A stretch of 64,000 nt of DNA from Botryllus schlosseri (lineage: Eukaryota). Shown here in pieces: positions 17,485-64,000 of this stretch. Each line of letters opens with the position of its first letter. Positions within the stretch are counted from its first letter, which is position 1. Made by a program: the position numbers and the translations under genes. The notes below the pieces were generated by a model that saw only the letters and a list, made by a program, of their open reading frames with translations, was not told where the DNA came from and did no database searches. The stretch is from contig CM119372.1 in NCBI GenBank assembly GCA_051294905.1, positions 35,900,001-35,964,000 of the forward strand, in the 5' to 3' direction.

Positions 17485-18474
17485 TCACGATAAACCTCTG
17501 GTTTGAGTGGTAGGTATCCCAACCTGCGGAGACGTAATCGTATTTGCAGCTTTAGTAGCGACTATTTGCGGTTTTGCAGTACGTTCATGATGGAATGCCT
17601 TTGGGTGTTGAATACGCCTCCATAAGGAAACCGCGGGCGCGAGCCTGGATCTCCGACCGACCAATATTAGATTTACACAGATCAGGTTGATGATTATGTC
17701 CAAATGAAGAAAAGTGAAGCGAAAGTTCCGAATGCTAGATCCGATCGCAAATGTGATTGCGGTCGCCGTATCGGATACTATGCATACCACCGTCAGAATA
17801 GTGACTCTTTTCATCAGTCGAACATATTTACGGTGATTCTGTAGGCTCGATTTCCGATTATAATGTATTACTTTAACTAATGGATAGATGAATAGCATAA
17901 GCAACGGAAACTGAACGGCCCAAGGAAGTACCAATAGCGCACACGTTGTTGAAAAATACTGCAACGGTTGCAAACGGACGATCCAGCCTATTCCTAACAA
18001 GCCTATGATTCCCATATAAATAGGAAAATATTTACTGATGAATTTTGATATGTCATTACTCAGATGAGCCATGGCTGAAATCCGGTAAATAGTTCTCTGT
18101 CTCATCCATATGACAAGATACACCGTCGTGAACACAAATCCCCCGACAATGGTTAAACCATTCTGTAATTTGTCTTCAGTGTTCAGGGCAAGTCCACAGT
18201 AGTCCGTGTCAGTGGCGTTCGTCGATACGTTTGATATGCAGCGGTCGGATAAGCAATTCTTGATACGCACAGAAACAACCATTTCAATCACGAGTGAAAC
18301 AAGCAGTAAGGAACAGCTGACCGACAAAAAAATGCTTTGAATAAAATCTTTCGAAGTCTTACAGCCCTTCAGGAGATGCTCCCCAATGAAGTAAGTCCAT
18401 TGAGAACAGCATAGGTAGACAGCGCCGCAGCAAAATACTGATCCACAAGCGATGACTGTGTCGATGTACTCCAT
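17485..18474 (-). CDS. Intronless orphan 7-transmembrane (GPCR-like) protein, 329 aa from first ATG
   Basis: Long intact ORF with seven hydrophobic segments, Cys before TM3, WMRQR after TM3, QFPLLMLFIYPL in TM5, CIVSD in TM6. Confidence 0.8.
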   Translation of the reverse strand: MEYIDTVIACGSVFCCGAVYLCCSQWTYFIGEHLLKGCKTSKDFIQSIFLSVSCSLLLVSLVIEMVVSVRIKNCLSDRCISNVSTNATDTDYCGLALNTEDKLQNGLTIVGGFVFTTVYLVIWMRQRTIYRISAMAHLSNDISKFISKYFPIYMGIIGLLGIGWIVRLQPLQYFSTTCALLVLPWAVQFPLLMLFIYPLVKVIHYNRKSSLQNHRKYVRLMKRVTILTVVCIVSDTATAITFAIGSSIRNFRFTFLHLDIIINLICVNLILVGRRSRLAPAVSLWRRIQHPKAFHHERTAKPQIVATKAANTITSPQVGIPTTQTRGLS

Positions 18475-19033
18475 TCCACTTATACAGCTACAGCGAATTA
18501 ATATACTGAATTCTGTACTGAATGGCAATGAACATATAGCTCGAATGTAATATGTAAATACTAAATCTGTAAAATGGTTAGGCTAAGAAGGAATCGGAAA
18601 TAGGTAAATGTATGCGTAGGTCTAACTATGCTTTTTGAGTCTTATTTGTAGGGGAGCTGATATTAGAAATTACCGCCATCTTAGTAAAATCCCAGCGTGC
18701 CTTGCAAAGTTCTTCGTATCGTGTTTCGTAAATCAGTACATTTCTTAGAGATCCGTCCATATACGATTCACATCTACAAATCAACATCATGTAGTTTGCA
18801 AATGATAACTTTTTCTCAATATCCAGCATATAATTGTGTACCAGGCAAGTAGACGTTAAAGCACTATTATAAGAGCTGATGCAAATTCTCCTAAATTGTG
18901 AGTTAAGTCACAGATATCCGGGATTGGAGCAATAATAACTTGACTTAGATTAACTTAAATTTCTTGACAATCAGTACTTGTGCAGCGGTACCTTACCAAA
19001 CTATGATGCAGCCGGCATTCGAAATAGTTTGGT

Positions 19034-21102: not shown

Positions 21103-23730
21103 CAGTGGTTCTCAACCGGGGGTCCGCGAAGCATTTTCAGGGGGACCGCGAGACCTCTAAATTTGCAAAATGATTGTAAACGAATTTGTAACTTTTTTAA
21201 ATTAGGGAAATCACGAAGCAGTTTCGCTTCAAACTGCTAATGCTTCAGTAAGCACATCAATAGAATGGCCGTATGAGATTAAATATGCTACTGTGTAAAC
21301 CAGTGGTTCCCAACCTTTTTGTCTTCATTCCCCACTTCAGATTTATTCCGAGCCTTCATTCCCCACCAGGACCGTAACAGCACTTCGTCAGCCCCGCCAA
21401 AAAAACGTTGGTCTTGGGCCCCCAGAACACCCTCAGCCCCGCTGAGCCTGTACGCATTTTCCCTGCAACTTATCAGCTACATTGGGACTACTGTTTGTGC
21501 GTCGCCTTACTTCGACTAAACGCGCGAAGCGCGAAAAATTTATATAATTCGTGTTTGAATCGATCAATATGATCGGGAATTGCTTATATTTTGCTATCAA
21601 TTTTTTATCCCCTCTCTGCTCACGTAAACCAGTTTACCGGTAGAGCTGAGTGAGGTGTGTTAGAAAAGGTAGCACCCCTAAATAAGAATTGAACATGTTC
21701 GGGAGGACCCGTTGGTATATTGACTTCGTTACATTATGCTATTTCGTGACCTTCTATATCTGCTATGTCAAAAGATACGGAAATCGCCCAAACTTAAAGG
21801 CACACACGATATCAAATTGGTATTGCTTTACTGGCAAATAATTTTTCCCTGCGGAATGGCATTAGTCCTGTGGGGTTCAGATTGCCAGGACAGAAACATT
21901 CGGCGCCAGCCATTGAGCCAATTAAACATCGAAGTTTTGGGTCACCACAAGGGCATTCCTTCTCGACCAAGGTCTTCTCGCTGCTGATCGTTCTGAGACA
22001 CTTCTCGGAGATGCATGTTACATAGCCTATAACTTCATATGCCTTGGTGCGTCGTGGCGCAGTAATGGCCGACGCAGAAGTCATTATTTCAATAAATTCC
22101 ACGTATTTTCGTGGGTAAAGGTAACCAATAATCAGATATTCAGCAATAATAAGTCGCGCAGCCAGCGCGAAATTTTTTTGAAAAAGTGGCATAAATTTTT
22201 AAAAAATACTTCAATTTATGTTAATTCACGAAATACTTTTGGGCTCCTTCAAGCTCGCCCACCCCTAATTGGGGGGTTTGGGGTGCGGCAGTTACGGTCC
22301 TGTTCCACACTACCCAGCACTTTTGTCATCACAGTGCAGCTATTTGCTGGTTTGACTACACAAGACAACGACACCAGTATACGCAAGACAATCGCCTATA
22401 ACTGCAACATAAAACGTATTGTGAACTGATACCAGTAACGCTCAAAATTTCTCGAAAGCGTTATTTCACGTCAAACTAGACGTGCTGGATCGTTTGTGAC
22501 GCCATAATTAGCCATCCAGAGTTAAAATGAGGGTTTGTGAACAACACGCAATATAATTTTCGATACATACATTCCAGAGCAGTTGACTGGTAACGCTAAT
22601 TGCGCATTTGTCTCCGTGAATATGTAGACTGTCCTGTATATAATTTTTAACAAATGCGTCTATTCCCCACCAGAAACCATTGAATTCCCCACCAGTGGGG
22701 AATTCCCCACTATTTGGGAACCACTGGTGTAAACCAAGGTTGTCAAACTCAAATTACGTCGCAGGCCGGATTCAAAAATTCTAAATGCTCGCGGGCCGCA
22801 CGCTTTGCTTTACACTTGAACACCTTGTTACCAAGCATATATAGATAATAGCATATTACAATTGTATCTCGGATCATAAGGGCTCTATTCTAGCAAGTAG
22901 CAACACCATTATTGGCGAGCAATGGAATTTGCGATGATGATTTGTTGGTTGAATCATAGAGATTGTAGTTGAATACACATATGAAACGCTGCTAAAACAG
23001 TGGCGGTAACGACGATACAAGTTTACTTATTTCTATGATCCATTTGCCTAAGTCGTAATCTGGCGTTAGCCGTGTGTATGCGTTGTGAAGAATACAAAAT
23101 ATTAAACTGTAAACGCGGACTTTTGAATTTGTTGTATTCTTATTAAATCACGATTCAGGTTCCTTTAGATTCCGGGTACCTTTTTAGTCAGAAATGATAC
23201 AGCACCGCGACCATGCACTAATATTTGAATTACATTTTTTGTGTATATAATATAATATTATCCATGTTAACTTCATATAACAGTCCGGCATCGTCTTTTA
23301 GGCACATTATTCCATAAAACTCCACTCAGTGTGCACTTATCGCTCAAAGGTGTCGTCGGAAGCGTCAGGCGTCAATATTACATTCGCCGCCAGCTACCTT
23401 TGTGGAAATGGATTTTCGGCACCTGTACATATCAAATCGAACGCGTGAATTTTCAAGACACGACCACATATTTCAAGAAACAAGAAATACAGCTGCAGAA
23501 GTCCCTTCGAAATAATAAAAGTCTATCCATATTTCTACATATGGTATGATATTGTTTTCAAGAACTGTCATTTTGTTGCTGTTTATCACTATCCTATAAT
23601 TGATATTCGCACCAGATAGATGACGGTTGCACGACAATTCAGCTAAATTTGAACTGAAACTTGAGGGGGTCCGCGGGATCCGTCACGGTACAAAAGGGGT
23701 CCGCGAAGACAAAAAGGTTGAAAACCACTG
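21103..23730. mobile_element. hAT-Charlie MITE containing nested MITEs
   Basis: TIR CAGTGGTTCTCAACC / GGTTGAAAACCACTG, perfect TSD CACTACTC. Confidence 0.9.
21301..22726 (+). mobile_element. hAT-Charlie non-autonomous element (ATTCCCC subterminal repeats)
   Basis: TIR CAGTGGTTCCCAA, perfect TSD GTGTAAAC. Confidence 0.9.
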
Positions 23731-32021: not shown

Positions 32022-33561
32022 GTATACAGAGACGACGCGCAATATATGCCAGTATCATTATCTTTATCCGAATTCATTCATTACCTATGAATAAATTTCG
32101 CGTTTCGCCCGGCTAAGACATCACCGCGCACCAAATTTTCATTACATCATTGTCATCGATTTTGATGCGTGGTAATATAAGTCTTATTTTCACCGTTACC
32201 TAATCCGCTTCGCTCCTATCGGACGACAAAAAAGGCCATCAACATTCCAGTGGCGCGCACAATGGTTCATAAATCGTTTGTGGCCCGTGGGCCGAAAAAG
32301 TTGGCCTCTTAGTCTAGGGATAAATACGTTTATTATAATCGATCGATGATGATTACTCTCGATATATCAGGAGGCATCTTTACGATTAACGCCAGATCAT
32401 TACTAACGATGTACAATGTATACAAATTGGTTCAATTTTCGATAATATATTCAGTTCGCATGCTACAGGGACTATATTTCAACCCGTCGTCACGGTGATT
32501 GTGATTAAAAGTATCCCCAAACTATGCTTTCTACTTCACAAAATCCAAAGTCTGAAAAGCAGGGGGACCAAGACCATGACCAGCCAAGCATCGTGAACGT
32601 CCTTGAGTTTGCGTCAGGATTCGAGGACGGCGGGAAAAAACTCCTGCCTCTATGCAGACTTGGACAACTAGAAGATTTCAGCTGTCTGATTAGACTAGTT
32701 ATAAATGCCGGTAATCTCATTCTGATCTAATTTGTAGGGAAATGTTTTTATGCTATTTTAATTTCAATGTGACTTTTGGTTTTCATGCAAATGCTGTATA
32801 AGCAGTAACAACTTGCGAAACAAGCAGACACTTGCCATACTTATGTGTTTGAGAAAGAATCTGATTTATTATGAACTGATCTTGATATTAGTTTTATTTC
32901 CTTGTAATTCGGAATTGATTTCGATTTCCTTGTTTTCGTGAATACAGTATTTCTAATTCGACTATAATTTAAAAAAATGTGTAGTTATAATTCTAATTCG
33001 AATCTAATCTGGAAAATCTGAACATTTCCTAGTTGTTGAGCTCTGCCTCTTTGGTGGATCGAACACAAATGACGCCAGACACGCCGCACTGACAAATTAC
33101 AAGGAAAAATTTATGAACGCCCGTTCGCCTTGTCGCAAGTCCGAAATATGCATCGCTTCCAAATGAATGGAAATTCGTGACATGGTGTTTCAGAGAGATC
33201 TTTACAAAGTCTCCGTTTCAATTCACAATCCTTCTGTGCAAGATGCGCGTGGAGATGATTTTAATCATTCTGCACAGATTTTGCTGCATTTCGCTTCAGG
33301 ACATTTTAATTCTCACGCATGACGGAATTATATCGTCTGTAGACGATGGTAATTTTATACGTCATACACCTCTATTTTTCATCACGCAATTATCTGACAT
33401 CGGTGATTATACATGATAACGGATTAGCAGAAACTGAAAGCGGGACCCTGCATTTACATTAGAGTAGAATGTGCGAGTTGGTCGGCACGAGAAACTAAAA
33501 CTATGCTATGGTAGAAAATAAATTCGCTACACTAAAATCGATATATATATATATATATATA

Positions 33562-36400
33562 TTTACCTATTAGGCTACTTTGGGAGACAATCGTACTTAT
33601 TTTCGTAGCAGTTGGGGGACGAAAAAAATTGTGAGACAATTTTGTGTCCCCCTAATTCTTGGCGACATTTTTCCCTCAGTTGTTATCGTCTGTTAAGCAA
33701 ATCCGTTTGGGACCACGCTCATTAGTCCCTCATGTGTCCCTTACAAAAGAAATCAAGCCATGAAGTAGCAGGAATTTTGAGTTACAATGGCGACATGTTG
33801 ACCCCTGTATAAACCCCGTATTTTGAAAAGTGGCATTAAGTCGACAACCAATAGGGGGATTTTCTTCCACTTCTCGCGTGTATAAAATGACACTGCTTTC
33901 CATACATGATAGTTTTTGTTTAGGATTCACTCAGTTTAGACCATTCCGGTATATATAGGGATTTTAAGCATTTATGCACTGTGTTAAAAAATGACGACAC
34001 AAAAATGCTGACCACCATTGTGATGAATCGACATAAGTTCTAGTTGCGATTTTGGTAGACGCCGCGGGTAGTACGATTTTAATGTCGACTCCTAATATTT
34101 GGGCCCTTATTAGCTCTTAGCAAAGGCGAAAAGGCACTACATCATTGTCACATGTTGTTGTTTAACACTCGTGATACACAGTGTGAAAAAGAATTACTGC
34201 TTTACCTTAATACAACTCCATCTATATGTATTGGTTATAGCATGATAAATATTCTGTAGTATTTCTCGCACCCAATATATTGAGCTGATAGGTCGTTGAT
34301 TTGCTTGTGTCAAGGCCGCTTGAAGATGCTCTGTCAGTTGCGAGCATAAGGAATATACCTTATGTCAGTTATTCTCAACCTTTTATGTCCTTGCGGACCC
34401 CCTTTGGACAGTCGCGAGCCTTCGCAGACACCCGACTTTTATTTCTAATTTAGCTCCAAATATTGTTTCCGCTCAAGCCAGACAATGTACAGTGCGGTAT
34501 GAAAGATGCATTGCGACATATTGAACAGAGAGGAGAATGATGAAACTACGAAGCACGGTATTTATTAAGGGTGCCAAAAATTATTTCGTGAATGAACAAT
34601 ATTTATACGCTATTTATTTGAAAAATTTTGCAGCTTTTTAATTTTGCTCGCACTGTACGCGATTTCATGTAGATAAATGTTTTGATTATTAGGTACCCTT
34701 CCTCCACAAAAAATACGCATCATTTATGAAAGTAGGCATCTAAGCGTTGGCCATTACCACGCCAAGATGTAAGAAGACATATGAAGTTTGGGCCAACATG
34801 GGTCTCATAGAAGTGTGCCAAAAAGATCGTCAGCGAGAAAACATTAGTCGAAAAGGATTGCCCTTATGTTGACCGTAAACTTCGATATAAAAATGTATTT
34901 GTACGGGTGCCTAAAGTGCTGGCACCGAATATTAATGCCGTGGCAATCTGGACCCCACAGGGCAACTGACATCCCATCCCGAATTATTATTTAACAGTGA
35001 AGAAATACCAATTTTGAATCGTGCGCTTCTTTTAGTTTAGTAGCCTGCGTATAGGCGAGTTCAATATCTTTTGATTACATACCGCACAGGAAGTCGCACT
35101 GAGAGGATACAACATTTATAGTAATATACACGCAATTATCAATATTATTGACCTAATCAATCATTAATTATACAAAAATTTTACCAGGTCCACGTGGTCG
35201 CATCTGAATGGAGACTGCATAGGTCAAAAGTGCTACATTCGGTCAATGTGGCGATCACCAAATAGATATAGGATTCTCAACTGTATCAATGTGAGGCGAG
35301 ATGCTATGTAACAGTCCCTGGATTTATGGCTTTTACCTATACAAGAGTAATATATTGCTCAGAACGCAGTCGTCAAAGCAGATGACTATAAAATGTGACC
35401 TAATATGGCCGCGGGTGTAATCATCCCCTCTCCACATCCACAACAATTTCGTTGCTAGAGAGAGGAGAACAGCACCAACTAGCATAATAAATAACAATAT
35501 ATCTCGTCGTAATTTTCGAATTATAGGCAAGGTCCAACGGACCATGTGACCTCAAACAGCTTTCCATACCTTTGTAAGTTTGTTGCAATTCCATAAATTA
35601 TTGTAATCACCCTATCATCGTCACCAGAAACACATATCTGAGTTGAAAACGCGTGATATCAATCAAGCGTACGTTTAACATTAAATTCAACTAAGTAGCT
35701 CATGTCATCCGCTCATACCATGCAGCAGTGTTGATCGTAAAGTCGAGCTGGTTTATTCGTCATCACATACACGGATAAAATGACTCTGCAAAAGCTAACA
35801 TAAACAAATAATGATGATCAGGCTGAAATGTGGCAACATAGGATTGGAAAGCAGCCAAGTGCAAGTAGTAAATTAGTTGACTTGTTTTGTCATTTCATAA
35901 CGTCACAATGCTGCGGCAGGAGAGCGTCAAATCAAACACTTATCAAACATATTATGGTATCAGCTATAAATACCCAGAGGATCGAATTCGCACAATGCGT
36001 CGGTTACAACGCTCAGTATAGGCTTACAGCCCACAATCCTACATTATATACGTTGCACTAACTAATAATTCCACGAGTACAGATATTTTAGTTTCCTTAT
36101 AATAAAAAACGGTAAGAAGCAGTCAGATTCGGGTATCAATTACGACCCCCGTCAGTTCAAGCCAAGTCAAGGGCAACATTACATATATTGACTGACTGAT
36201 GTTGAAGAGATCAGAGCGTATAACGTCATCATCGTTGCTCATTATGGCAGACTAGGGAGTGATATTCACATTTGCGTGTGGTTATAATGAAGCCTCCGCA
36301 GTCCGCATGCACTTATCGGTCACGCATTGAACAGCTCGACGGCAAATTCATTGGAGTGAGTTGTCAGCTATCTTGACGTCTCGAGATTTTGGATGCAGCC
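33562..36400 (+). mobile_element. One end of a large (TA)n-inserted element, same family as 54585-64000; far end not found
   Basis: Terminus TTTACCTATTAGGCTACTTTGG after (TA)n; 35970-36390 matches the reverse complement of 63640-64000. Confidence 0.6.
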
Positions 36401-38807
36401 GTTGTGAAGCGTAAACGGCGTAAAATCAATCTCATGTTTGTTTGTTTTGTTAAGCTAGTTCACCCCTCAAATATTCTAAACGTACACATTTATAACCTTT
36501 CACAAAAAGAGCATTCGAAATCAGTATTGATGCATGGCGTCGTAGGTTCGTGCTCACATCGAAAGATCGCGTGTACAGGAACCAGAACCTTTCAGGGGTT
36601 TGTCCTTTGTACCATCCCCATTACAAATGGATTTGTTCGGTATGAGAGGCAGAATGGTCAGCGTTATTTAAAATTCTTTGGAATATATATAATTTGATTA
36701 GGTACATCAATTTATTCTGCCGTCAGCTGACATAATATTTTACTCGAATATTTACTTCACTCCGCAACAAAACAATTGTAAGACAAGACAGTTCAATAGT
36801 TTCGTAACTTGCAAATTTATTCCTTACGTCGTAAAACCGGTATCGCCCCCTGTTATGTTGGCAGCTTGCTCTCAGCACTTGACTTGAGCACTGAGCAATG
36901 ATCAATTATAAACCAATGGACTCAGTTTCGCGCTTTTGAGAGCATTGAATTTGCGCATATCAGCGTATTTAAACATTTGAAGTTCCGTCACTAATTTTCA
37001 TTCGTACTCACCGATTCGATGGAATGGGATTTATAGCCCCGAACTTTACACCCGCTACCTCCATAGTCACGACGAGCACCTTCCCAAGATGCCAGACCCC
37101 CAAATGAGGATGACTGTTATAGGCAGTCAGAAGTACCTATTACAGTTCAATAGTGATCCCTGACAGAAAATACAAACTTTGTAGTCAATAACGTCAGGCA
37201 CGACGACGACAAGAATAAAATGGAATATATTTGATTATTTGAACTCGCTCCGAAGTCTGGAGACTTCGACTGTTTCATATGCTGTGCATTATCTTCAGCG
37301 CAAGAGCACACTTCATCGAGTTCGGACACCTGATCCTAATTAGTACTGTATCCTTCGTAAATTATTTTTCATTTTAGTGTCTCCACAAGTTGAAGATGCC
37401 TGGAAGCTCCTCGACCGAGAATTCTATGTCAGGTCAGTAGATGTTGCAAAGGCGGGATTTACTAAAAATTAGAACTCGTACTCATTGTTTCATTTAATAG
37501 CCAATTAATTTATCAACTCATACATATGGTTCGTGATTACAAGCACGTGTCGCCCGTCATTGGTTGAGCGCAATTAGAACCGATCAATATTCGAATAGTT
37601 TATGTTGTAGTCATAGCCTACGGTATTTGCAGTGGCGTATACGCAGGTTATATTGGGGTTCGAAATCAAAACCCCGTCCTTACGAAATATCGATTCTAAT
37701 TCTAATATTTATTAGCTCGTTTGCATTTACGAAAATGGTGTCACGCTGTTGCTTTACGGCCGAACCACATTTAAATCTTTCTTCTCGCAAATGTGACCAA
37801 GTGAAACTTCATGTCACTGATTGATTTACTGTGACGATAATCGTTCAATCATTCCGAACGAAGTCACCTCAAATTTGTATCTTACAAAGTACAGAAAGTG
37901 TTACTACAGCAAGTATAATTAAATATGTCATTCTATTGCATATCGTAATATCCTGAGGAGTGCCTATATCGATATTCATTTCCTTCCTGAATCGATCATG
38001 AACTAAAATAGAAATCAAATCATGCAGTTACTTGTCCAGACGCGATCGGCGTTTTTTTACTATTTGTTACATCTGTTAAACCAATTTTCAAAGGCATTCG
38101 AAAATACCAGGAACGCTATAACTGTAATCAAGATATATACAATTTATATGACTATGATCCCAGTAACTTATATTTTGTACAGAAAACCGACTTACCCTTA
38201 TTATACGTAGCCTACCGTCTATCGCCAGTTTGCAGACGTGAATAATAATAATATGTGTCTTTATTCAGAGTTATTTGTCTTTCAGAGAACAGATCAGAAG
38301 GTAGAAGATCAATAAACTCCAATCTCTAAAAGATTAAAATTACCCCATCATTATCCAACAAAATGATGCGAGTAGATTGAGCTGACAATTTTCGCGCTCG
38401 ATGTATGCAGTTGAGAATTCGCCAAGTCGTGATCGGGATGTTATTTATATTCGTCATTTTACAATTTTGTTACGAAAAGAATTTGGACAAAGTCTGACAG
38501 AACGTCGAAAACAATAGTCACTGCTCCATATTTTCAACGGGCATAAATTTCTGGTTTTGAATGAAAATGTTCTTTTACTTAACTTTGATACTGTAATGTA
38601 AGAATTTTTAGGTTAGTGCTGATTCTCTCGCAAGTTACAATGGAAAGACAGATCTATTGAATGAGTATGATGTTTTTTTTATATGGTGAGTAATTGTCGC
38701 ATTCCTTGTTTTGTAGTAGCCACCGGGGTTGTGTTTCAAAATCGAGATTGGTTGAAGTCGATAAAATGTAGGAGCAAAAATAAAATCATAAATTTAAAAT
38801 CGCTGGT

Positions 38808-39190
38808 TCGTGGTACAGAAATTGAATATAGCCTTTAATACAACATCCATTGTAGTAAAATATTTATTAAACTCGAAGACTTTTCGCCAATACATATTAG
38901 CTGCCATAACAGATTGTTATGAAGATTACCAAGCATATGCTTCGTCGATTGTTCAGCATTTGAGTGAAAACCTCGCCTGTGCGCAACATTATAATGACAA
39001 CATGTTTACTGTCATTGCGCGAGGCAGATCTTTGTTTCATTTAAAAGTGGTGGCGCCCACCATTATTCAATTGACCAAGCCTATTTTATGTACAGTACAG
39101 AAAAAGAATTTCTCCATAACTTACAAATTTCTCGTTACTTTGTTCTGTATCGTGTTTGTACTGTAATTGTTTATTTACGAACTGCTATGT
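38808..39190 (+). mobile_element. Penelope 3' fragment with inverted terminal segment
   Basis: SSIVQHLSENLACAQHYNDNMFTVIARGRSLFHLKV, same family as 5500-9037; preceded by an inverted copy of the element 3' end. Confidence 0.8.
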
Positions 39191-43182: not shown

Positions 43183-45038
43183 CACTGGTCAACAAAATGA
43201 AAAAAAAAATTTTAGGCAGAACATCTGAGAGCCGTTTCTGGGGTTTTTGAGGTTGCTGATTACGAATATCACATTAGTTTTGTCAGATTGGCTCTTTGCC
43301 AGGAGATATTTACACCCCTAAAAAAGCTCAAAATTACTGTTTTTGCCCCTAAATATTTCACTTGTTACGAAGAAAATCGTAGTTTTTTCTAATGTTATAC
43401 TGCGTATAAATAACTAGTTGACTATAAAGAATCCTCATGTCATTATAAGTCGTTCTATCAATATTAACATGACATGATGCGAAATATTTGTTTGTCAAAA
43501 AAGCAGTTTTTGAAGCCTAAAATTTGTACTTTTGCACAACGGAAATACATATTCTCCTGTATAAATTGGTCATTCTATCAAGATGAAAGATGAGTATAAA
43601 ACTATAAAATTTGTCCTTGGAAGGCTTAACTACAATACTCATATGCGTCTCCTTTCTTTCGACTGGTAAATTGATAATTTTCCGCTGAGTCAACAAAGTG
43701 GGTATAACATTATCAAACGAGAAGCGTGAATCTGGTATCTGGTATATTCGAATACCGATGAAAGATTCCAATTTTACATTAAGAAGGAGTTCACTGCATG
43801 TAATTTCTCCTAACATGTAGTAAATAAAGCATTTTAGATTATCATAAAGCACCCAATAAGAAACAGTTGGTCCGAAAATTCGTATCTGCATATCGAACAC
43901 TTGAGCACAAACATGAGCATAAAAGTTCACTTCCTGATCAGAAATCTTGATATATTTCCTGATCATCTTGTTGATTAGAAAGGGGAGAGGTTCTACCAAG
44001 ACATCAGAACAACAAAAGAAAGATATCAGGGCAGATGAGATGAACAATTGAACATATTATGTCAGACGATTGCCGCAAACTTTCAACAAACTGCACTAAA
44101 TAGCTTACAGGCGAAAATCTTACAAAAACAACAATTGTGATTTAAAATATATCAATAATATTATATACCAACTGATTATTTCAACTTTACAATAGCTGGT
44201 TGACGTAAAACTGATTGAATTAATGCCACGTTATTTGAGTGTCAAGGTAAATACCTATGTACCTGACTGGAGTTTATTTATGTACATGATATCCGTGAAA
44301 ATCTGTAACTATGATAAATCTATTACACCTAAATATAGTCCTGTTGTTGTATTTTGATTCAAAAGAGTCTTCTGTGTGTAAAAATAACAAGTAGATTGAT
44401 TTCCTAAACTTTATAGTACGACTGAGCCGATTTTATATGGTTCTATACCAATACCGAGAAAACCATTACCGAGAATGGACATTACCGAGAATGTCATTAC
44501 CGAGAATGGACATTAGCGAGAATGGACATTACCGAGAATGGTCATTACCGAGAATGGTCATTACCGAGAATGGACATTACCGAGAATGGCCAATGTCAAG
44601 AATATAGCTTACTGGGACTGACGTTGCCGCGAAATTTGTACCTGAGCATCGATACCGAATGTGGCAACGCCGTGATGCACTCACACGACCTGTGCATATG
44701 CATACCATGCCTGCATTGCATATATTGCATTCTCGGTAATGTCCATTCTCGGTGGTGTCCATTCTCGGTAATGTCCATTCTCTGTGGTGTCCATTCTCGG
44801 TAATGTCCATTCTCGGTAATGGCATTCTCGGTAATGGTTTTCTCGGTATTGACCGGACACCATTTTATATCTAGTCATTATCGCGAAAATGGGAGATTTC
44901 GGTCAAAATATCCCCATGGGTTATCTCCACAACAAGAGCCAATTTGAAAAAAAAACAAGGTCATATTCAGAATCAGTGCCCTTCAGAACCCCCAAAACCA
45001 CTCTTACTTTGTCTGCCTAAAAAATGTGTTGACCAGTG
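43183..45038 (+). mobile_element. Chapaev3 (CMC) deletion derivative
   Basis: TIR CACTGGTCAACA, 3-bp TSD TAA; remnant NMSIKVHFL..LDIFP..KGERFYQDI...RYQG at ~43900-44040. Confidence 0.85.
44439..44861. mobile_element. Foldback/Mutator-like MITE with 15-bp subterminal repeat arrays
   Basis: (ACATTACCGAGAATGG-type)n left and inverted right; perfect 9-bp TSD ATTTTATAT. Confidence 0.9.
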
Positions 45039-45394: not shown

Positions 45395-45712
45395 GACCGC
45401 GTGACAATGGAAAGCTGCTGCTGTCCTGATTACGAAATTATAAATTTTATTCTGCTCATGGTCCTGGAACCTCCCAAAATATGCCTCGAATTTTGCATTG
45501 TGATCAAGTTTTAACAATGTGACGCAGCAATTCCGTCTGGCAAAACGAGAGTGAAGCTAAGAAGAAAAAGCAAGGCAGCCTTGTTGCGCCACAATTCAAA
45601 ACTCAATCGCAATGCAAAATTCGAGGCTGGTTTTGGGGTGTTGCAGGACCATGAGCAGAATAAATTCATATTTTCGTTATCAGTACAGCAGCAGCTTTCG
45701 ATAGATACCCGT
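45395..45712. mobile_element. Palindromic MITE-like inverted repeat
   Basis: ~45410-45512 is a diverged reverse complement of ~45598-45699 (AAAGCTGCTGCTG...TGCTCATGGTCCTG...GCCTCGAATTTTGCATTG). Confidence 0.7.
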
Positions 45713-49682: not shown

Positions 49683-49783
49683 GCCTGTGGCGGCTCTAGT
49701 GACAACTGGAAAACGGCAAAAACCATTTACGAGTTCAATGCTGATGACATAGACGGCAATTCCGTTTCTCTGGACAAGTACAG
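49683..49783 (+). CDS. GPX4: Glutathione peroxidase (GPx4/PHGPx-like) exon 2
   Basis: tttcacag acceptor, gtgatt donor; ACGGSSDNWKTAKTIYEFNADDIDGNSVSLDKY(R). Confidence 0.92.
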
Positions 49784-50194
49784 GTGATTGTTCGAATGAT
49801 GGATTTCTTGCATTGCATTTCCCCGCCTTTCACTGATGAGTCCACTCCTTGGTGGTGGGAGACCCGATATTGTTATGGTTTGCTATTAACACTGTAGGGC
49901 TCCGACATCTACTCTACAATGAATGGTGTTCTCCGTGGTGACAAAGTTTAATAAGGTCGTGATTTTCCTACAGTCGTAACTTCAAATTGTTCCGGACGGG
50001 AATGGCTCATAACAGATTTATTTTAGTCGGCTCATAACAGATTTATTTTAGTAAAAAGAACGGCAGCTCATGCCTATTATCCCAATATGTCTTCGCCCAA
50101 GACGGATGAAGTTGCACTAGCATCGCATCATTTTAAAAATAAAATGTTTTCGAAAATAGTTTGATCTTGTCAGCTTCAGTACGTTCGTATACAC

Positions 50195-52072: not shown

Positions 52073-52217
52073 GGGCCAGGTCTGTATGGTAGTGAACGTC
52101 GCGTCTCAATGACGCAAGACGAAATCCAACTATCAACAGATGGAACAACTTTTTGAAAAGTACTCGTCAAAAGGCCTCAACATTTTAGCTTTTCCGTGTA
52201 ACCAGTTCGGTGGTCAG
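52073..52217 (+). CDS. GPX4: Glutathione peroxidase (GPx4/PHGPx-like) exon 3 with selenocysteine TGA at 52110-52112
   Basis: Phase-2 join; [48 protein letters not shown]; GPx signatures NVASxU and LAFPCNQFG. Confidence 0.95.
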
Positions 52218-53583: not shown

Positions 53584-54570
53584 ATAATGAGTTCTGTGCG
53601 CGGCTATAATGTCAACCAGCAATATAGCCGAAGTCGCATAAATTTGAATGTATATGCAAGTTCTTTGTTAAGGGTAGACTATCTGGCCTCGCTTAATACT
53701 CGAATCTCGCTGTGGTTACAAATTCGCCATGCTAATGCACTGATTTTGAAGCTAAAACATCCTATTTCATGCAGCCAAGAAGACTAGCACCGCGAGCCCG
53801 GAACTAGTTACAAGCATATAATGACAAGGCAGATTACGCAACACTAAAGGTGGGCTATTTCATTTCTTGACTATATTGAAAATCGACAGCGTACCGCGTA
53901 TAGCTATAATATAATAATGAGTTCTGTGCGCGGCTATAATGTTAACCGGCAATATAGCCGAAGTCGCATAAATTTGAATGTATATGCAAGTTCTCTGTTA
54001 AGGGTAGACTATCTAGCCTCGCTTAATACTCGAATCTCGCTGTGGTTACAAATTCGGCATGCTAATGCATTGAGTTTGAAGCTAAAACATCCTATTTCAT
54101 GCAGCCAAGAAGACTAGCATCGCAAGCCCGGAACTAGTTACAAGCATATAATGACAAGGCAGATTACGCAACACTAAAGGTGGGCTATTTCATTTCTTGA
54201 CTATATTGAAAATCGACAGCGTACCGCGTATAGCTATAATTTTCCCGATGCAGCAATGCACTTCAGATTAAGATATATATATATATATTTGAATGTATAT
54301 GCAAGTTCTCTGTTAAGGGTAGACTATCTAGCCTCGCTTAATACTCGAATCTCGCTGTGGCTACAAATTCGGCATGCTAAAACATCCTATTTCATGCAGC
54401 CAAGAAGACTAGCACCGCAAGCCCGGAACTAGTTACAAGCATATAATGACAAGGCAGATTACGCAACACTAAAGGTGGGCTATTTCATTTCTTGACTATA
54501 TTGAAAATCGACAGCGTACCGCGTATAGCTATAATTTTTTCGATGCGGCAATGCACTTCAGATTAAGATA
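53584..54570 (+). repeat. ~330-bp tandem repeat, two full copies and one partial
   Basis: Near-identical units (same MSSVRGYNV...CSQED translation twice); third copy restarts after a (TA)n run. Confidence 0.92.
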
Positions 54571-55056
54571 TATATATATATATATTTACCTATTAGACTA
54601 CTTTGGTGGACAGTCCTGTTTTGAAGCAGTTGGGCGACAGTTATCGCCAACAGAAGGAGACAAGCTAGGCGTCTGAAAATAACTCGATTGGTTTTGGAAT
54701 ATCGATTCCGCGCTTTGTCACTGGTGATTTGCGGTTTATATCGCAGCGTTTAGAATATACACGAAATGTCCTCCAACTGCGGTCGCCCTAATTTTTCCCA
54801 ACTTTTTCAATATCTAATAGACCACTTTAGTGGACATTTGTTACTTAAGGAGACAATTCGCCATTTTGAATTACCAGACCATGACCATTGCTGTTACTGA
54901 ACTAAGGTGGACATTGACGTCGTATTATATGACAAGGTTCGGGAACCAGTTTCGTCAAAAGAGTCATTTACCAATGACAATCACTTTTGACGTCACTATT
55001 TGAAATCCACGACGTCATCCTTGTACGATATCGATGATCGCGATATATAATTCGCC

Positions 55057-55321
55057 GTTTGTTTGTTTTTTATTCATGGTGTTTTGACTAATTTCGTAGT
55101 TTTAGAGTATGCCTACATTCATTTTTTGATTCCGTATTCACCGACTTTTAGCACAGCCCACTCCTAGGCTTTTATAAATCACCGCTTACGCGGATCACAG
55201 GATGACGACGAGCCTAGATAAACCTCCAACACTTGGGTAGGAATTCTCGTGTCGTCCTCAGCCGGACTCGAACCAACAACCCATTGGTGTTGCAGCTGTG
55301 CATTATACCAATGACCACGCC
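55057..55321 (-). mobile_element. tRNA-derived SINE copy (3' fragment also at ~56600-56730, +)
   Basis: ggactcgaacc..cccattggtgttgcagc head and body match 31575-31850. Confidence 0.8.
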
Positions 55322-56219
55322 ATTTCACCACGCACATATTTGCGTTTGAAAACTGCTGTGAAAATACGGAACATGTGTCTTTATAAGAAGCTACAGTTGG
55401 CCATGCTGCAGATTAGATCACCAGTTTTTTACGGCTAGTATCCAAATCACTATGACATTCGTTGGCCAGCCGTGGCTACTCTGTCGCGATAGCAGATCCA
55501 AGTTCTAATTAGGTAATAAATATATTCGGTTTAATATAAGCAGCCCTAATATCCCTCGGAAGTATAACGTCTCATGGACCATACAGTCTACTAGCAGGTA
55601 TGAGGCAATTTTTCCCCTAAGGCACTGTACACTTTTTGATCCAATATTACCGAATAAAGACCACTTTAACATGTCTCTAAACCGATCTCAGACTCTCGCC
55701 ATGTTATAGCCGCGTCAAATTGTAAGGAGTTACCGTATAAACTTCGCTCCAAATTCATGTTTCTCTTAAAAACCCTACAGCAGATCACATTGAATCTTGA
55801 TTCGTGATAATCTTGGGCACTTGATAATTGCTAACTTCCATTTGTTTTAAGCCATACGCCAACTTGTTCACTGTTCAGTAATTCGGACCTCGAGCAATAC
55901 GGCTACGCCCCATGGTGAGCCATGGGTGCATCCTCCAGCCAATGCTGAAAGCGGCCAAAAAATCGTTCGATTCTACCAATGTCAACCTGCTAAATCACAC
56001 CAAGAAATGAAATAGTTCGAAGCATGCGATCGAAACCAATTTATCAAAACACATTCGCAACAAAATGTTGTGAAGAGAATGCAACGAAAATCATGAAACG
56101 AATTGTACATTTAAAATTGCCACCAGGTACTAAACGAAATTGCTCAATCGTAATCTACAGTCGTCAGTGCTAGAGATCACTGACGCTACGTGCTGAAAGT
56201 CTGATGTCATAGTCCATGA

Positions 56220-59200
56220 CTATTCGTGCATTTGTGACATCCCCTTATGCAGTGCAGAGCGGCATCTTTTTCTCTCATTGAAGATTTTGGTTTTAACCAT
56301 TTTTATCCTCTGCATGTCCGGTAAACCTTTCAGGATGTCACTGCTTTCCACAAATTCTCCAATTTCTTTGTACCCTAAAAAGACACGAGCATATTTCATT
56401 AAATCTATAATTTGGGCAACTAGCTGCATATAACTATTGTAAGGTTCAATGGTATTTCAACGACGACGGTCAGAAGAAATCATATAACATCGAAGGTTGG
56501 CCTAGCTCGGAAGTAGGATCCAAAGAAATCGATATCTTCACTGCCATGATCAATAACTAATAAATGTATATTACGCGAACACACAGCATCAATTTACATT
56601 CCCCCTCGCCATCTCATCCCTGTAAGCGGCGTCTTATAAAAGCCCAGAAGTGGGCCCTGCTAAAAGTCGGCAATTATGGGGGGAATGACCATAGTAGTCG
56701 ACAAACACCATGAATACCACAAACGAACAAACCCATTCCACTCTACCTGGCAAGCTGCCTTTGTTGCTGTCTCCTTCCTCATAAATTACATCCTTGAATC
56801 TGTTTAGGATTTCAGCTGTTTCTTCACGAGTCCATCTATGGCGCTCTTGACGCTCTTGAAACGAGAAACCAAGTTTAACCCTGGCAATTCTGGCAAATTT
56901 TCAATTGGGAAAGACGGCTTTTTCTTTCACAGACCGATGGCATCTGCAGTTGTAGCATTTTTTTGTTGTGTTGCATGATTGCTTGCTTCTTTAATAAATC
57001 GAATTTGAGGAGCCGTAATTTTCCACTTAAAGCCAGAGCTTCTTTGACTTCATCTTCCTCAGGATGCTTATTTATTAAATGTCGGTTAAGTTTCGTTTGG
57101 AACTTCTTGCAGTAAAGGCATGGCCTTGCCGTTTTTTTCTTCGGCCTTGCCCGCTTTTTCTTTATCCTTGAAGTCACAGCTTTCTTCTTTGGCGTTGAGG
57201 TTTCCAGGTCTGTCCACTCACAATCAGAACCATCTGGAGCCCACGTTGATGACTGTGAGCCACATGAGATATCCATGGCTGCCTCATTATTGCTGTTGAT
57301 ATTGGTGTCGCAACAGTCTGAAGTGGATGACTTTTGCTGAGATGTTGCGGGTTACCGGGTTTTCTCTTCTTCCCTGCCATCATCGCTACTGAAACTGTCC
57401 GTAGTCGAAGATGAAGACTGTGGCTCATATTCCGAAGCTTCACTGATACATGACTCCTCAAAGTCTTCGTCTAGTTCCTCGTGCGCATCTGGGTCCATTT
57501 CATAATCTGAAAAATGATGCCTTAGGTATTTATTCATTTCCTGCGGGATAGAGGAGTTCTGTGTGTAACGTTTCACTAATCCTACCGACCATGTACAATG
57601 TACATTGTACCTATATGCTAGAACGATAAATGTATTGGAATAGTAATACCACTACGAATTAATAAATTGTCATCAATATATTTTGGTACTGTTGAATATG
57701 AGAATATTAGGTTGAACACTTATGTTGAAAATGAAATGTGGCAAAATATTGTAAACTCACCCTCTTCATGTCCACTGGGTCCAGCCTCTCCGTCGTTATA
57801 TTGACGATCGAGTGATTTTAGTCTTTTATTCATAGGAGGTGTTTCACATGAGCCACCTCTATCATTCTGCATCTCATTTTGACTGATGATATGTAGCGAA
57901 GATCCAAGCCTCTTCCGGGCATTGACATCATCTTCATTATCAACAGTATCTGAAAGATGCTTGTTCCGATTAGCTGTGATGAAACGAATTTGCGTAGGTT
58001 AGACTATCGTGTTGCATGTATCATGTATCGTGTTGTCTGTCATTTTAGATTCAAGAGTGACTGATGCGTCGCATTTGAATAGATAGTTTTGGTAAAAGGA
58101 GTGCCCATACTGTATTTAACATTAACAGTGAGTAACTGGTACGCTACATGCAGATGTATGTGATGCTGTAGACAATTTTACAATCATATAAATGTATCGT
58201 ATCATTTTGAGATGTTGGTTGAGTTCACTCGAAGGTGTCAAATTAAATAATTCTCGAGTAGCGTGCAATCGCCCATAACATGATACCTTCCTTACAAGGT
58301 AATCAATCTTCGAAAATTTAGTCGCTGATGATGACCGAGAAATGACTGCGAGATAATTCACATTATAGTGCGCACACCTCACCGTATTTGCCATTATATT
58401 ACTGGAGATTGTTGGACCAGCGTGAACTCAAAGGTGGTGTGGACACTCGGAAAACCACGTGACTGTCAGGCCCAGATACCTTTGACGACTTTGTTATTGT
58501 CGATCCGTCTGCAACAGTAATTAAAGGCAAAGTCGCTATTGCTCTTCGTTGATTTTAACTATGTTCCATATCGATTTGGGTGACATAATTTCGTATGGTA
58601 TATTTTGATGCTGTCATCTTGCGCTGTACCAATTTTGAAGACTATGGCTATATGACTAGCATAGTAATTTCGCTGTCGAAGTCGAGTATCTAGTAAATTA
58701 GCGCGCGCCGATATAATGTCGACCAGCGCACGCAGACCCTGGATACGCGAATTTGATAACGTACTTACTACTGTAATTATAGAGTCACACCCTTGAAACT
58801 TGGTTAAGTATTAGATTCCTTCATCAAGATATACAATATGAATTTGATTATCCATAGCCGTATGAAATATATTTAAATTGTACACATACCAATACTGGCT
58901 TTTGCAGTAAAATCTGCTATGCGGCAGGCTGAATGCCAAATCAGCGCGCACCCTGACATACGCGACTTTAATCACGAAATTGCTACCGTAATAATTGAGT
59001 CACAGCCTTAAATCTCGATACAGTGCTAGATGTCTCCATCAGAATATACAATACGATATTTGTTATCCCCCGCGGGATAAAACACATTCAAAACCTACAT
59101 ATAGCATTATAGCAATTTCGGCTTTTGTGAAAAATCTATCATGCGGTAGCCTAGATGGCAGGTCAACGATGTACTTGATATACTCGACTATCATAACGAA

Positions 59201-60790
59201 ATTACTATCCTGATCACCGAGTCACACCCTCAAAAATTGGTTCAGTGTAAGATGCAATCACCTGACCTTCAGCCTACCGCATAACTGATTTTTCACGAAA
59301 AACAGTATTGGTATGTGTACATTTTGATTGTTTCCTATATGGCAAAATTTCGGATTGTATATCTTCATGATGGCATCTAACATTGTATGAAGATTTAAGG
59401 CTGTGACCCAATAATTAAAGTAGTAAGTACGTTATCAAAGTCGACCATATATTGGCGCGGGCTGATTACTAGATGCTCGACTTTGACAGCGAAATTACTG
59501 CGCTAGTCATAAAGTCATAGTCTTGAAACTTGGTAAGATGACAGCATCAAAATATACCATACGAAATGATGTTCCCCAAATCGATATGAAACATAGTTAA
59601 AATCAACGAAGAGCAATAGCGACTTTGCCTTTAATTACTGTTGCAGACGGATCGACAATAACAAAGTCGTCAAAGGTTGGACTAGGTTCGTGGACTAGGT
59701 TCTATTACGGACTTGAAAAAATTCTATTGTTTGCGAATAACGGGTTTGATAGAGTATAACCGCATCATACATGGGCTGTATAATTGAGTATTCAAGTGCT
59801 CAACTGAGGCGTTGATTTTGAGGTAACATTTTTGATTGATGTAACTGGTCCGCCCCGCGAGCGATTTGAAGGTCTGAATCCGACCGGCGAAGCAATTCGA
59901 GTTTGACACCCCTGGCTCATGGTACACGGTAGTAATAAGGGAGCGAACACATCACGTAATATCCTTGTCAGCAAACCGTAAACATATTGCACAATGTACA
60001 TTGTACGTGGATAACAACGCTATTTGATGAAATATACCATATCATCGATCATCGAAACATTGCGAAACATTACTCCTCATCAAATTGACTCAATTGATAA
60101 TAGACATAATGATGAATGGTTCGTTTTCAAAACTTGGCGTCAGCATTGGAATTATTTCGGGCTCGAATCAATAATTTAAAACTTTGTATCATTGCTCTGT
60201 TCGAATAGTAAATTAACTGAAATGTGGTATAGACATTTGATAGTTGAGTAAAGAGTAGAGATAATACTTCCAGTTTCGACTTCAACATAGATATAGGCCT
60301 ACTGTAGGCCTGCTTCAAGCGAAACAACTAATATTATGCTACTCGTGTAAGAAGCTGTATGATCATATCAGTAAACTGAATCATTCATGATGGTACAGGG
60401 AAGAAACATACCAACACTATGCATAATTGTATACGCACATGACACACATTTTACATAAATTACGATGACCGAAACACATGGCGTATAGTCCCTATGTCTC
60501 AGAAAGCCCAACGAACGAGCCGTACCTTGATGTATTTGTCAAATGTAAATTTGCGATTATAATTTAATCGAAAGATTGTTATACCACCTTTCTGTTGTCC
60601 TTTAATACCCTCTAGACTATTTCCACTTGTTCAATATATAATTAGGAACCACTGATATATTGAAATACATGTAATCATACGGAAGTACATGGTACGTACC
60701 TTTGTCAGAAGAGGCATATCTTCCGAGCTTTATTGGCTTAGGATCAAATGCTTCGTTGTCGCAGTCAGAGTCGGTTAGTATATCCATCAT
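56220..60790 (-). pseudogene. Six-exon antisense gene with zinc-finger-like and C-terminal Myb/SANT-like motifs, centrally deleted
   Basis: Exons 60790-60700, 57949-57761, 57506-57356, 57292-56875, 56854-56747, 56374-56220; four GT-AG introns with matching phases; the exon 4/5 join is a stop plus a bare acceptor; RPCLYCKKFQTKLNRHLINKHPEEDEV; RWTREETAEILNRF...LPG...VKTKIFNER. Confidence 0.75.
58478..59677. mobile_element. Long inverted-repeat (foldback) insertion
   Basis: ACCTTTGACGACTTTGTTATTGTCGATCCG... and its near-perfect reverse complement ending at 59677; similarity continues about 300 bp inward. Confidence 0.85.
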
Positions 60791-61011
60791 ATAGTCAGAC
60801 TAGTCAAACCTAATTCTAAACAGATGCGTGTATGAATATTCTGCTTGATACCGAAGAGAACGCACCGCCTGAAATCCAGCAAAGCTAACACAACATTCGC
60901 CTGTACTCGGAGACACGTCTAGATCTCGAATTCAAGGGCACTCAATTTGTGAGAGCGTCGCGAGAAAACGTAGTGATATGATCCACAGTTGCGATACCAG
61001 CCAGTTGCGGT

Positions 61012-61575
61012 TTCGAACCTCCTTAATTACCTTGGCGCATGATGAGATAATCATCATTGTAAACGAGGTATTGCATGCGACATTATGTGATTTATTAGGC
61101 TCCAGGCTCCACCTATGTCTGCAGGCCTGTGCTTCAAATCCCGCATTAATCATAAATGTACGTATGTGCTTGTGCACTCGTACTGTACATTTACAAGTAG
61201 AAATGTACGTGAGACAATAGCATTTCATTATGATATCTCTAGATATTACCATCCCGGCCACTTACAAAGTATTTGTCTCCGCCAAATCAACTAACGGTTT
61301 CGATTCGCCCATATGACTTCCTTTGGTAATAACCCTGCCCGATCAATTATAATTACAATTATCAACATGGCCAAAGCGCCAAACCCTGTATAAACTAATC
61401 CCAACCTATCTTAATTTCGAATTGCGAACCTCCTTGATTACATTGGCGTTTAATGGGGTCATCATCATTGTAAACGAGGTATTGCATGGCATGCGACGTA
61501 ATATGATTGAATAGGCTCCAGGCTCCGCCTATGCCTGCAGGACTGTGCTTCAAGTCCCGCACTGATCATAAATGG
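61012..61575 (+). repeat. ~150-bp direct duplication
   Basis: cgaacctcctt..attac...gtaaacgaggtattgcatg...aggctccaggctcc...atcataaatg at ~61014-61158 and ~61425-61574. Confidence 0.8.
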
Positions 61576-64000
61576 ACTGTACGTACGTACACTAGGGCTG
61601 TTCAAAAATAAAGTAAAATTTCGGATTCCAGCCATTGACTTATTAAATTGTCAGGTTACCCTAAGAACACTGCACACCAAAGTTGGTTCAATTCTAACAA
61701 GTAAAGGACTCCGCAGATCAAATTAAAAATTTTAATTTATTAGGTGAAATTTTGAAAAAGAATTCGAATTTTTCTGCCAACCCCATGAAATTGTTTAGCT
61801 GTCTTCAAAGACGATGCAAACCAAATTTGACTCAATTCCGACCAGTAGAAGCGGAGTTATGTGAGTTTTTCGATTATAATCCTCGGATTATCCTGGATCG
61901 GTGGATCATCCGAGAAGTTCACGTTTTTCATAGGCGGCCTTTTCGAGGTTCCGTCTCGGTCGTTCACACCACTGGGCCACACGAGGTACCGCTGCGTTCG
62001 TCTTCGGGCCCCGCGTAGACCGATACCCGATACGATCGTATCGGACTTTCAGCCGACTCGGGATCGGCCTTCAAAAAACAGTGTATAGCGCTTTTTTCAC
62101 AGTTTTTTTAATCACCGATTTCTCGCCAACCGAATATCGTAGCCGGATAAATTTGGTACCGGCAGACGCGTAATTCGATTAAGATTCCAACGATACCCGG
62201 GAAATGGGGCTGAGACGCGTAGAAAAAAGTTTTCTTCCAAAAACCCGTGATGGTACGCCAATACGGGTTACGCAGTAGGTTTTTCGATCGGTCGGTATCA
62301 GAACATAGATCGAAATACCGATCGACAACCGCTGGTCTTAGGGGTTCGACAGAGTTATCCCCGTTTTCCTCTCGTCGAACTGAACGCGATGATATCCGAT
62401 TCAACGGCTTGGACACGGGGTTGGCCCGGTATTGGCGTCTGAAAAGTCGGTTTTTGTCTCCCAAAGGCTACCGAATTCGCAGAATATACAGATCGATCAG
62501 TAGCTTAGGAATAGCCTACTTTTATCACAAAAAATTTAACATGCCGCCTTTCTTACAGAGATAGGCACAATTCACAATGTTGAATTAGGTCGATGACTTT
62601 TGTATTGTATACGTACGCGCGACCAATTGCGTGCCATCAACTGGTAAGGTCTCATGTCCGCTGTCATCGAGTGATTGAAAGATTAGTTTCAGCGTATTAG
62701 CAGGTTATTGTAAATGGACGTTACTTTGGACGATGGACTAGCAGATGATGTAGAATGATGCAGAAGATGTATTGGCACCTCATGGCCCTAAAGTTTCATG
62801 ACAAGTATATCAGCATGAATCCTTAACACGAATCTTATATGAAAAGTTAAAGACGCAAACATGCGTGATGGAGTTACTTCCCAATCAGTGTTTTCATCGA
62901 ACGATTCGTTCTGTGTATTGAAGAGTATTCTACATAGCTGCTGAATTCTGCGTACAATAGCGTACAAATTTGGATCGCCACGCTGACTCCTTTTCCATGA
63001 CAAAAAGTGAGTATTCAGTATAGAATGCATTTCCCTTCTGTTGTAAGTATTATATTTCGTTAACTACGTCACGCGGAAGGGTAAGTACTGGACAGAACAG
63101 TCGCCAAACGGAGGCTGCGTCCTGTGATGTTTCCCTCACTAATTCAATCCGTGCCGTGGTAGATTTTCACTGCGTAACGTGCTTTCTGACAGATTATTAA
63201 ACGTCTATGTGAGTAGCAACGGATTTAGAATCGTCCTTGAAAAGGTGTTCACAGAACTCAATTAGTAAAATGTCGACTTCACGCTCAATATATCTGGGAA
63301 TAGGCCTACTTTTATCGCGTAACGTTAACTTTATATTGTTTCCCGATTAATTTCAAATAATTCAACTAGCTAGATACTTTCTAAATATTGATAAATCGTA
63401 TATATACGCTGTGTGAGTGAGCACATAGTTACGATAACATCTGCCTTTTCGTTTCATTGATTCAAAATCAAGTGTGTGGCCTATGATAAAGCTCCATCTT
63501 GATGAAGCAACCTATCATGTTGCATTTTTGTTTTGAAATTTACTGGAGTTGTGTATAATCTTCAAACGTATGTACTGTGCATGGAGCTAACAATTTGGCA
63601 TTAGATCGCTGCCTTGTTTTTCAGCCACTGCAAACAATCGAGACGTCAAGATAGCTGGGAAGACACTTAAATGAATTTGCCGTCAAGCAATTCTGATCAA
63701 AGTGCCTGCGGTCTCCCTAGTCTGCCATAATGATCAACGATGATGACGTGACGGTCTGATCACTTAAACATCAGACTGTCAATGTCAATATATGTATTGT
63801 TGCCTTGGCTTGAACGGACGGGGCCGTAATTGATAGCCGAATCTGACTGCTTCTTACCGTGTGTTAATATAAGGAAAATAGAATATCTGTACCCATGTCT
63901 TAGTTAGTGCAACGCATATAATGTAAGATTATCGGTTGTAAGCCTAGATTATACCGAGCGTTGTAACCAGCGCATTGTGCGAAACCGACACTCTGGGTAT

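Follow-up and report, generated by a model that had tools for sequence, protein, structure and literature searches.

A young DNA element family beside (TA)n tracts in Botryllus schlosseri, with apparent remains of a tyrosine-recombinase gene in one copy

Introduction

Few eukaryotic DNA transposons are target specific, and those of the tyrosine-recombinase (YR) kind that target microsatellites are documented mainly via one Repbase report, such that the kind is known but thinly documented. Here, we describe two copies of a DNA element family from the tunicate Botryllus schlosseri, both of which lie beside (TA)n tracts in a stretch of 64,000 nucleotides (nt) of contig CM119372.1 (assembly GCA_051294905.1; this whole stretch is hereafter the window). 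Copy A is the element that starts at position 33563, and copy B, which contains what appear to be the remains of a YR gene, is the element at 54586. The window is eukaryotic DNA, rich in repeats, with a GC content of about 40%, and its best protein matches suggest a host of a tunicate-like kind.

Five groups of described elements come closest to this family.

(i) CryptonV includes some families that insert specifically in microsatellites (PMC8869645, citing Kapitonov & Jurka 2012, Repbase Reports 12:2034). The available parts of PMC3627910, PMC4455052, and PMC5753468 contain nothing on the ends of CryptonV elements.

(ii) Classical Cryptons (A, F, S, and I) are mobilized by YRs, are proposed to move as excised circles, have nonautonomous derivatives, and are described as having no terminal inverted repeats (TIRs) and either direct repeats of 4 to 6 bp or none (PMC3212892). 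The sites on which YRs act consist of two inverted repeats of 11 to 13 bp that flank a spacer of 6 to 8 bp (PMC3212892).

(iii) Endogenous nimaviruses encode zinc-bearing YRs for telomere repeats and 28S (PMC10871703).

(iv) The sesarmid nimaviruses combine a Ginger2-type integrase with a 46-bp TIR and insertion in (AT/TA)n (PMC10871703). Ginger2's termini have the pattern TGTNR (PMC2836005).

(v) MuTAnT, a Mutator family of the plant Medicago truncatula with a mudrA-like DDE transposase, comprises mostly nonautonomous DNA elements with variable TA-repeat flanks (PMC4486113).

A literature search, which did not extend to Repbase or to subscription journals, returned no published account of the present family or of any tunicate YR elements that carry TIRs and target (TA)n. 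Copies A and B are probably defective members of one YR-moved DNA element family that is CryptonV-like in behavior and recombines into (TA)n: copy B would be a near-complete copy viewed from its 3′ end, with a YR gene that lacks its catalytic core, and copy A a 5′ fragment. Because both are defective, they could be moved only in trans.

Results

Of the six AT tracts of at least 10 bp in the window, the two longest, (AT)11 and (AT)9, are those that adjoin copies A and B (Table 1). The initial annotation had proposed that each tract is followed by a common end (TTACCTATTAG-R-CTACTTTGG..GACA...AGCAGTTGGGSGAC), after which the sequences diverge; alignment confirms this and sets the extent of the common end at ~53 to 58 bp. 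Aligned without the tract, the ends score 52 over 58/53 bp, whereas none of 1256 tiles of the window scores above 28, and the left flanks of the two tracts are unrelated (score 20). The first 11 bases after the tract form an outer arm that is identical at A and B (12 bases with the last T of the tract, and 21 of the first 22), beyond which the two ends align with gaps; the end letters are TTTAC/TTACC. Further inward, each end has three copies of GG[AC]GACA within its outermost 300 nt, versus 0.045 occurrences expected for this motif, which was picked after inspection of the ends and which may be an arm-type binding site. Even with as many as 5 mismatches allowed in 22, the window contains no inverted copy of the end, and so neither copy displays both ends. 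The terminal 21-mer had no match among metagenome contigs. End-like matches of 10 to 11 bp at 42690, 18609, and 48722 were rejected as chance, the remainder of the end being missing there.

Directly upstream of copy B is a three-unit tandem repeat (53569 to 54567) with units of about 330 bp that are 97 to 99% alike over their common part. The neighboring unit has the same flank and an (AT)8 tract without the element, and this tract represents an empty-site paralogue or else a duplication junction that formed after insertion. The second of these possibilities bears on an explanation that accepts the family and its ends but in which (TA)n is no target, being instead borne by the element or grown by slippage from a short TA site. 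Flanks have been seen for two ends only, the letters ATTT fit both sides of the possible junction, and units 2 and 3 show 2 differences in 236 aligned bases, all of which would suit such a history. Set against this are the unequal lengths of the two tracts (22 versus 18 bp), their position at opposite ends of the family next to unrelated flanks, and the element-free adjacent unit itself, and we regard an element-borne or slippage-grown tract as quite unlikely.

Whether A and B belong together was assessed with contigs from 4 of 24 runs (X1, X3, X5, and X12), placed on 33100 to 39100, except for 33531 to 33572, at 80% likeness; summed contig depth does not equal copy number and was therefore used for boundaries and ratios only. 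In all four runs, 33563 to 36384 is a multicopy family that begins at the tract: flanking depth is single-copy on both sides (about 5 to 15 in X1, about 35 to 110 in X5, and 0 to 3 in X3 and X12), and depth from the bin with 33563 up to 36384 lies tens of times above that of the flanks. Two types of contigs make up this plateau. A-type contigs diverge from copy A by 2 to 3.5% (7/283, 12/339, and 6/286 letters), and B-type contigs, present in 4/4 runs, span 36259 to 36334 with 24 letters that are found exactly in copy B (depths at this joint of 176, 18.9, 1820, and 15.4 in the four runs). In three of the four runs, a contig of equal depth bridges 35945 to 36019; since its shorter side measures 57 to 62 letters, B-type contigs reach to the left of 35970, the counterpart of the window edge in copy B.

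The inverted relationship between 35970–36390 and 63640–64000 that the initial annotation had noted is likewise borne out, as 35970–36391 versus 64000–63631 at 81 to 82% identity (82% with an expectation value [E] of 5e-80 for 35970–36259 versus 64000–63713, and 86% for 36334–36384 versus 63688–63638). If this 420-bp block were an independent repeat, A and B could be two families that have a terminal motif in common. No contig with B's letters runs from the common block to A's end, the link being one of matching depth, and depth inside the TIR (33604) is 1.4 to 6 times that just inward of it, such that other families may have the same end. The common block is, however, part of the plateau from 33563 and not a depth spike, and variants at B-type depth continue leftward at constant depth in 4/4 runs (35486, 34742, and 34680; also 33939 to 34222 in X12). 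Near the end, at 33778 to 33797, total depth agrees with the sum of A-type and B-type depths: 500 versus 493 to 500 in X1, 48 versus 50.5 in X3, about 3500 versus 3815 in X5, and 45 versus 47 in X12. We therefore consider two separate families very improbable. The proposal in the initial annotation that these are the left and right ends of one family is thus supported by subfamily continuity and by the depth sum, although not by a single spanning contig.

The family is real and young, with two subfamilies and imperfect inverted ends beside (TA)n. In B-type copies, the other end is most likely that of A, on which basis copy B is predicted to be near 11.8 kb long, with a far end of the form ...CTAATAGGTAAA(TA)n expected near 66.4 kb. 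This agrees with the initial annotation, which had predicted an end about 2 to 2.5 kb past the window. A single 33-kb element with 2.8-kb arms, in which A's end is paired with one past 64000, was considered and rejected, as the two sides are separate multicopy subfamilies.

Copy B contains what its sequence indicates is a broken gene of a eukaryotic YR family, pointing at B's end, which is not in the initial annotation. On the minus strand, 56878 to 57351 contains an acidic stretch together with a C2H2-like zinc module, and two further exons, 56746 to 56856 and 56229 to 56375, show GT/AG splice contexts. The Styela clava YR protein P0171 (864 amino acids [aa], YR motifs present) matches copy B with its residues 133 to 218 (E 4e-15), 769 to 814, and 817 to 853, and the three matches are collinear and on one strand. 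The zinc module breaks off mid-motif at a frame change near 56878, which we read as the loss, by internal deletion from a YR gene, of about 550 residues that would have included the recombinase core.

Relatives of the zinc module number 190 at an E of ≤0.001; among the 150 of these that were listed, 59 are at least 500 aa long, and 20 of the 59 contain the YR motif N-x-R-R-x-G-E. The top structural matches of a model of one relative (P0011) are XerH, XerA, integron integrase, and Cre (best E 8e-4), which suggests that the family has a YR fold, and P0011, P0015, and P0019 have weak matches to PF00589. Across 30 scanned relatives, weak SAM-like matches were present in four. A second Styela clava protein, P0170, has an additional N-terminal SET domain. 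CryptonV proteins probably carry SET and zinc modules.

Our comparison set for related YRs consisted of 80 metagenome loci, most of them short or interrupted by repeats. The zinc module matched 75 of these loci, the last exon matched 7, and the preceding exon matched 1, with matches to the last and preceding exons always downstream of the YR core. At one such locus (L056), TTAGGG repeats occur at 185 to 239, about 8 kb upstream of the related YR gene. A hidden Markov model (HMM) built from 21 YR relatives matched the zinc exon alone among 2933 fragments of the window. Pfam gave no family for the four gene pieces (one match at E 0.15), and 30 further frames yielded one weak unrelated match. For the 91-aa zinc piece, a search by word index confirmed 0 of 96 candidates, whereas an unindexed search recovered the family; in the Atlas, unnamed eukaryotic clusters appeared at 0.93, which we treat as a lead only.

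Several observations weigh against a YR-moved family. Classical Cryptons lack TIRs (PMC3212892), and TIRs together with (TA)n targeting are also known in DDE elements (PMC10871703, PMC4486113). The window lacks the YR core (best E 0.22), no contig of the four runs links the YR gene to the ends in another copy, and the data examined contain neither an intact driver nor a circle junction nor an empty allele. At the 80 related loci there are no clear microsatellite-flanked inverted ends, and the outer 11-mer has no exact match there and 13 one-mismatch occurrences in 562 kb, none of which is beside a TA tract. (TA)n flanks are established for just the two ends in the window, both of which adjoin (TA)n (2/2). 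Finally, the best single match to the gene, P0002 (Styela clava LOC120341162), combines three zinc modules with the C-terminal module but has no YR; genes of such a layout that lack a YR thus exist, and P0002 is possibly a domesticated derivative of the YR family.

Alternatively, the ends might be those of a (TA)n-targeting DDE family that moves by cut and paste, comparable to MuTAnT or to the Ginger2-type integrase of sesarmid nimaviruses, with the YR piece in copy B as a passenger, either a nested relic or a captured gene that never had the core. TIRs of about 50 bp plus subterminal repeats are typical of DDE elements, copy B holds several nested inserts, and the YR-less Styela clava gene is similar in layout. 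The sesarmid nimavirus elements, moreover, insert in (AT/TA)n, and their TIR as printed includes, by eye, the reverse complement of the outer-arm 11-mer at 33563 to 33573 (PMC10871703). Against such a passenger, no Pfam transposase match was obtained in 30 open frames of copies A and B, which is weak evidence, given the defects of both copies and the 2.4 kb of copy B that lies beyond the window. The ends also deviate from the TGTNR pattern of Ginger, and the sesarmid 11-mer sits away from the TGT-like start of its TIR and may thus be a chance match. In addition, the gene remains are collinear, on one strand, and directed at the end, and the mid-motif stop at a frame change resembles a deletion within a YR gene. 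Taken together, we consider a DDE family with a YR passenger unlikely, and we retain the YR-moved family as the probable explanation.

In copy A, a profile search, a Pfam scan of open frames, and further searches returned no coding match. Family contigs stop at 36384, and in X5 a single-copy contig of 5625 nt meets the window at 36381, from position 3232 of the contig onward. The right break of copy A is probably a deletion junction at which the rest of the copy plus some flank was lost; alternatively, it may reflect an insertion in the X5 allele. Elsewhere in the window, a repeat with CAGTGGTTCCCAAC-type ends, which we take to be hAT-like, is present at 50187 to 51401 and 21293 to 22300, and a piece that is 70% alike is built into the family at 34570 to 35042. 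Within copy B, the label of short interspersed element (SINE) for the repeat at 55120 to 55330 is a putative one drawn from its sequence.

Copy B had initially been described as intronic. An exon of a selenocysteine glutathione peroxidase lies upstream on the plus strand, and no next exon of this gene was found downstream in the window; because the upstream exon is present and its successor is outside the window, copy B is probably intronic. A second glutathione peroxidase exon was recognized by eye at 49683 to 49784 (plus strand).

Other features of the window include a 300-bp palindromic element (45407 to 45702), an element in which a 16-bp unit forms two inverted arrays (44447 to 44854), and an open frame of 365 aa on the minus strand (17485 to 18582) that contains several hydrophobic stretches and may be a single-exon membrane receptor. 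At 7853 to 9457, frameshifted reverse-transcriptase-like frames with a YFRYVDD motif mark an old non-long-terminal-repeat element.

Table 1. Positions of the element copies, their parts, and adjacent features in the window
Feature	Coordinates	Strand	Remarks
(AT)11 tract	33541..33562		Adjoins copy A
Copy A, 2.8-kb 5′ fragment of family	33563..36384	+	2 to 3.5% from contigs of its subfamily
5′ (left) family end, imperfect TIR	33563..33620	+	Depth climbs here from single-copy to plateau
Older repeat fragment within family	34570..35042	-	About 70% like 21790-22247 and 50728-51085; depth spike
Inverted block of A common with B	35970..36391	+	From alignment
Right break of copy A	36381..36384		TCGA fits family (to 36384) and single-copy flank (from 36381)
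Selenocysteine glutathione peroxidase exon	52074..52217	+	PF00255, E 5e-19; in-frame TGA at 52110; upstream of B
(AT)8 tract in neighboring tandem unit	54273..54288		B's upstream flank, then (AT)8 and TTGAATG, without element
(AT)9 tract	54568..54585		Adjoins copy B
Copy B, continues off window	54586..64000	-	Predicted length about 11.8 kb, with the far end near 66.4 kb
3′ (right) family end, imperfect TIR	54586..54638	-	Downstream of the gene's last exon
Putative nested tRNA-like SINE fragment	55120..55330	-	B-box-like GGTTCGAGTCC; second piece at 56606-56732
Last exon, second half of C-terminal module	56229..56375	-	P0171 817-853, E 1e-4
Exon, first half of C-terminal module	56746..56856	-	P0171 769-814, E 0.005; P0011 from 655, E 5e-5 (pairwise)
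Junction	56857..56882	-	Zinc module ends mid-motif, meets intron before C-terminal exons
Exon, acidic stretch and C2H2-like zinc module	56878..57590	-	HMM E 1e-30; one in-frame stop
Candidate upstream exon	57761..58109	-	AG/GT contexts, one stop; no database match; putative
Nested insert, foldback-like or like a miniature inverted-repeat transposable element	58478..59677		1.2 kb; 143-bp arms 97% complementary; internal 215-bp repeats
Candidate upstream exon	60700..60800	-	Acidic, GT donor; no database match; putative
Block of B common with A	63631..64000	-	Contains the 24 letters marking the B-type subfamily

Discussion

How a YR might move this family can be outlined from its ends. The recombinase would bind the identical outer arms of 11 to 12 bp, aided by the GG[AC]GACA repeats further inward. 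The excised element would be circular, with its arms facing each other and a few TA units between them, forming a lox/dif-like site. Such a circle could then reinsert by crossing over with the TA units of a (TA)n tract in the host, an outcome in which both sides would retain (TA)n and no true target-site duplication would arise. Either orientation of insertion would be allowed because (TA)n is identical on both strands, and copies A and B lie in opposite orientations. More tentatively, and with confidence well short of that in the family's mobilization by a YR, this could be a TIR-bearing, (TA)n-targeting, recently amplified YR family of a tunicate type, whose lox-like site has the microsatellite as its spacer. 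In such a site, insertion would have no fixed orientation, and direction would come from subterminal motifs read by the zinc or the C-terminal module. Because copies are only 2 to 3.5% apart, an intact driver may survive in the genome.

Compared by description only, the family resembles CryptonV in probably being a YR-family DNA element of an invertebrate animal and in the microsatellite that adjoins both ends seen, and differs in that the present copies have no YR core. With respect to the encoding of a YR, which is a CryptonV trait, the N- and C-terminal modules are present and the family appears to have the YR fold, but the core is absent from copy B. Likeness to the classical Cryptons lies in the probable mobilization by a YR, in the proposed circular intermediate, and in nonautonomous derivatives; in contrast to those elements, the present family, if it is one family, has inverted ends of 53 to 58 bp. 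The YR of CryptonA is, furthermore, of the DUF3504 type, whereas PF12012 was matched in 1 of the 30 scanned relatives (P0025, 1585 to 1749), far from the zinc match. With TIRs present and a YR that is not of the DUF3504 type, the element does not fit the definition of a classical Crypton.

The YRs of nimaviruses for telomere repeats and 28S offer a parallel of a different sort, in that these are YRs with a C2H2 zinc domain that are tied to insertion in simple repeats (PMC10871703). The present element differs from them in its size of about 12 kb (predicted 11.8 kb), its apparent (TA)n target, and its inverted ends. No viral Pfam family was detected in the scanned frames of copies A and B, and a scan of viral contigs returned 11 pattern matches with 0 confirmed relatives. 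To the Ginger2-type elements of sesarmid nimaviruses the family is alike in the apparent (AT/TA)n target, a TIR of about 46 to 55 bp, and the one common 11-mer seen by eye, which may be chance or a shared binding motif and stands as an unexplained lead; the ends here differ from the Ginger2 termini, and no DDE gene was found in the 30 open frames. MuTAnT, too, has TA-repeat flanks and mostly nonautonomous members; it differs in its mudrA-like DDE transposase, of which the same frames gave no sign.

The locus itself consists of two copies, both dead, of an element of an already named kind. For annotation, it cautions that TIRs next to (TA)n do not alone imply a DDE transposon. Because the family is young, has defined ends and identical short arms, and probably has an empty-site paralogue, the model of a circle that recombines into (TA)n becomes testable. 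If the reading of a lox-like site with a microsatellite spacer is true, this would be the first characterizable eukaryotic recombinase with a dinucleotide microsatellite as its attachment site.

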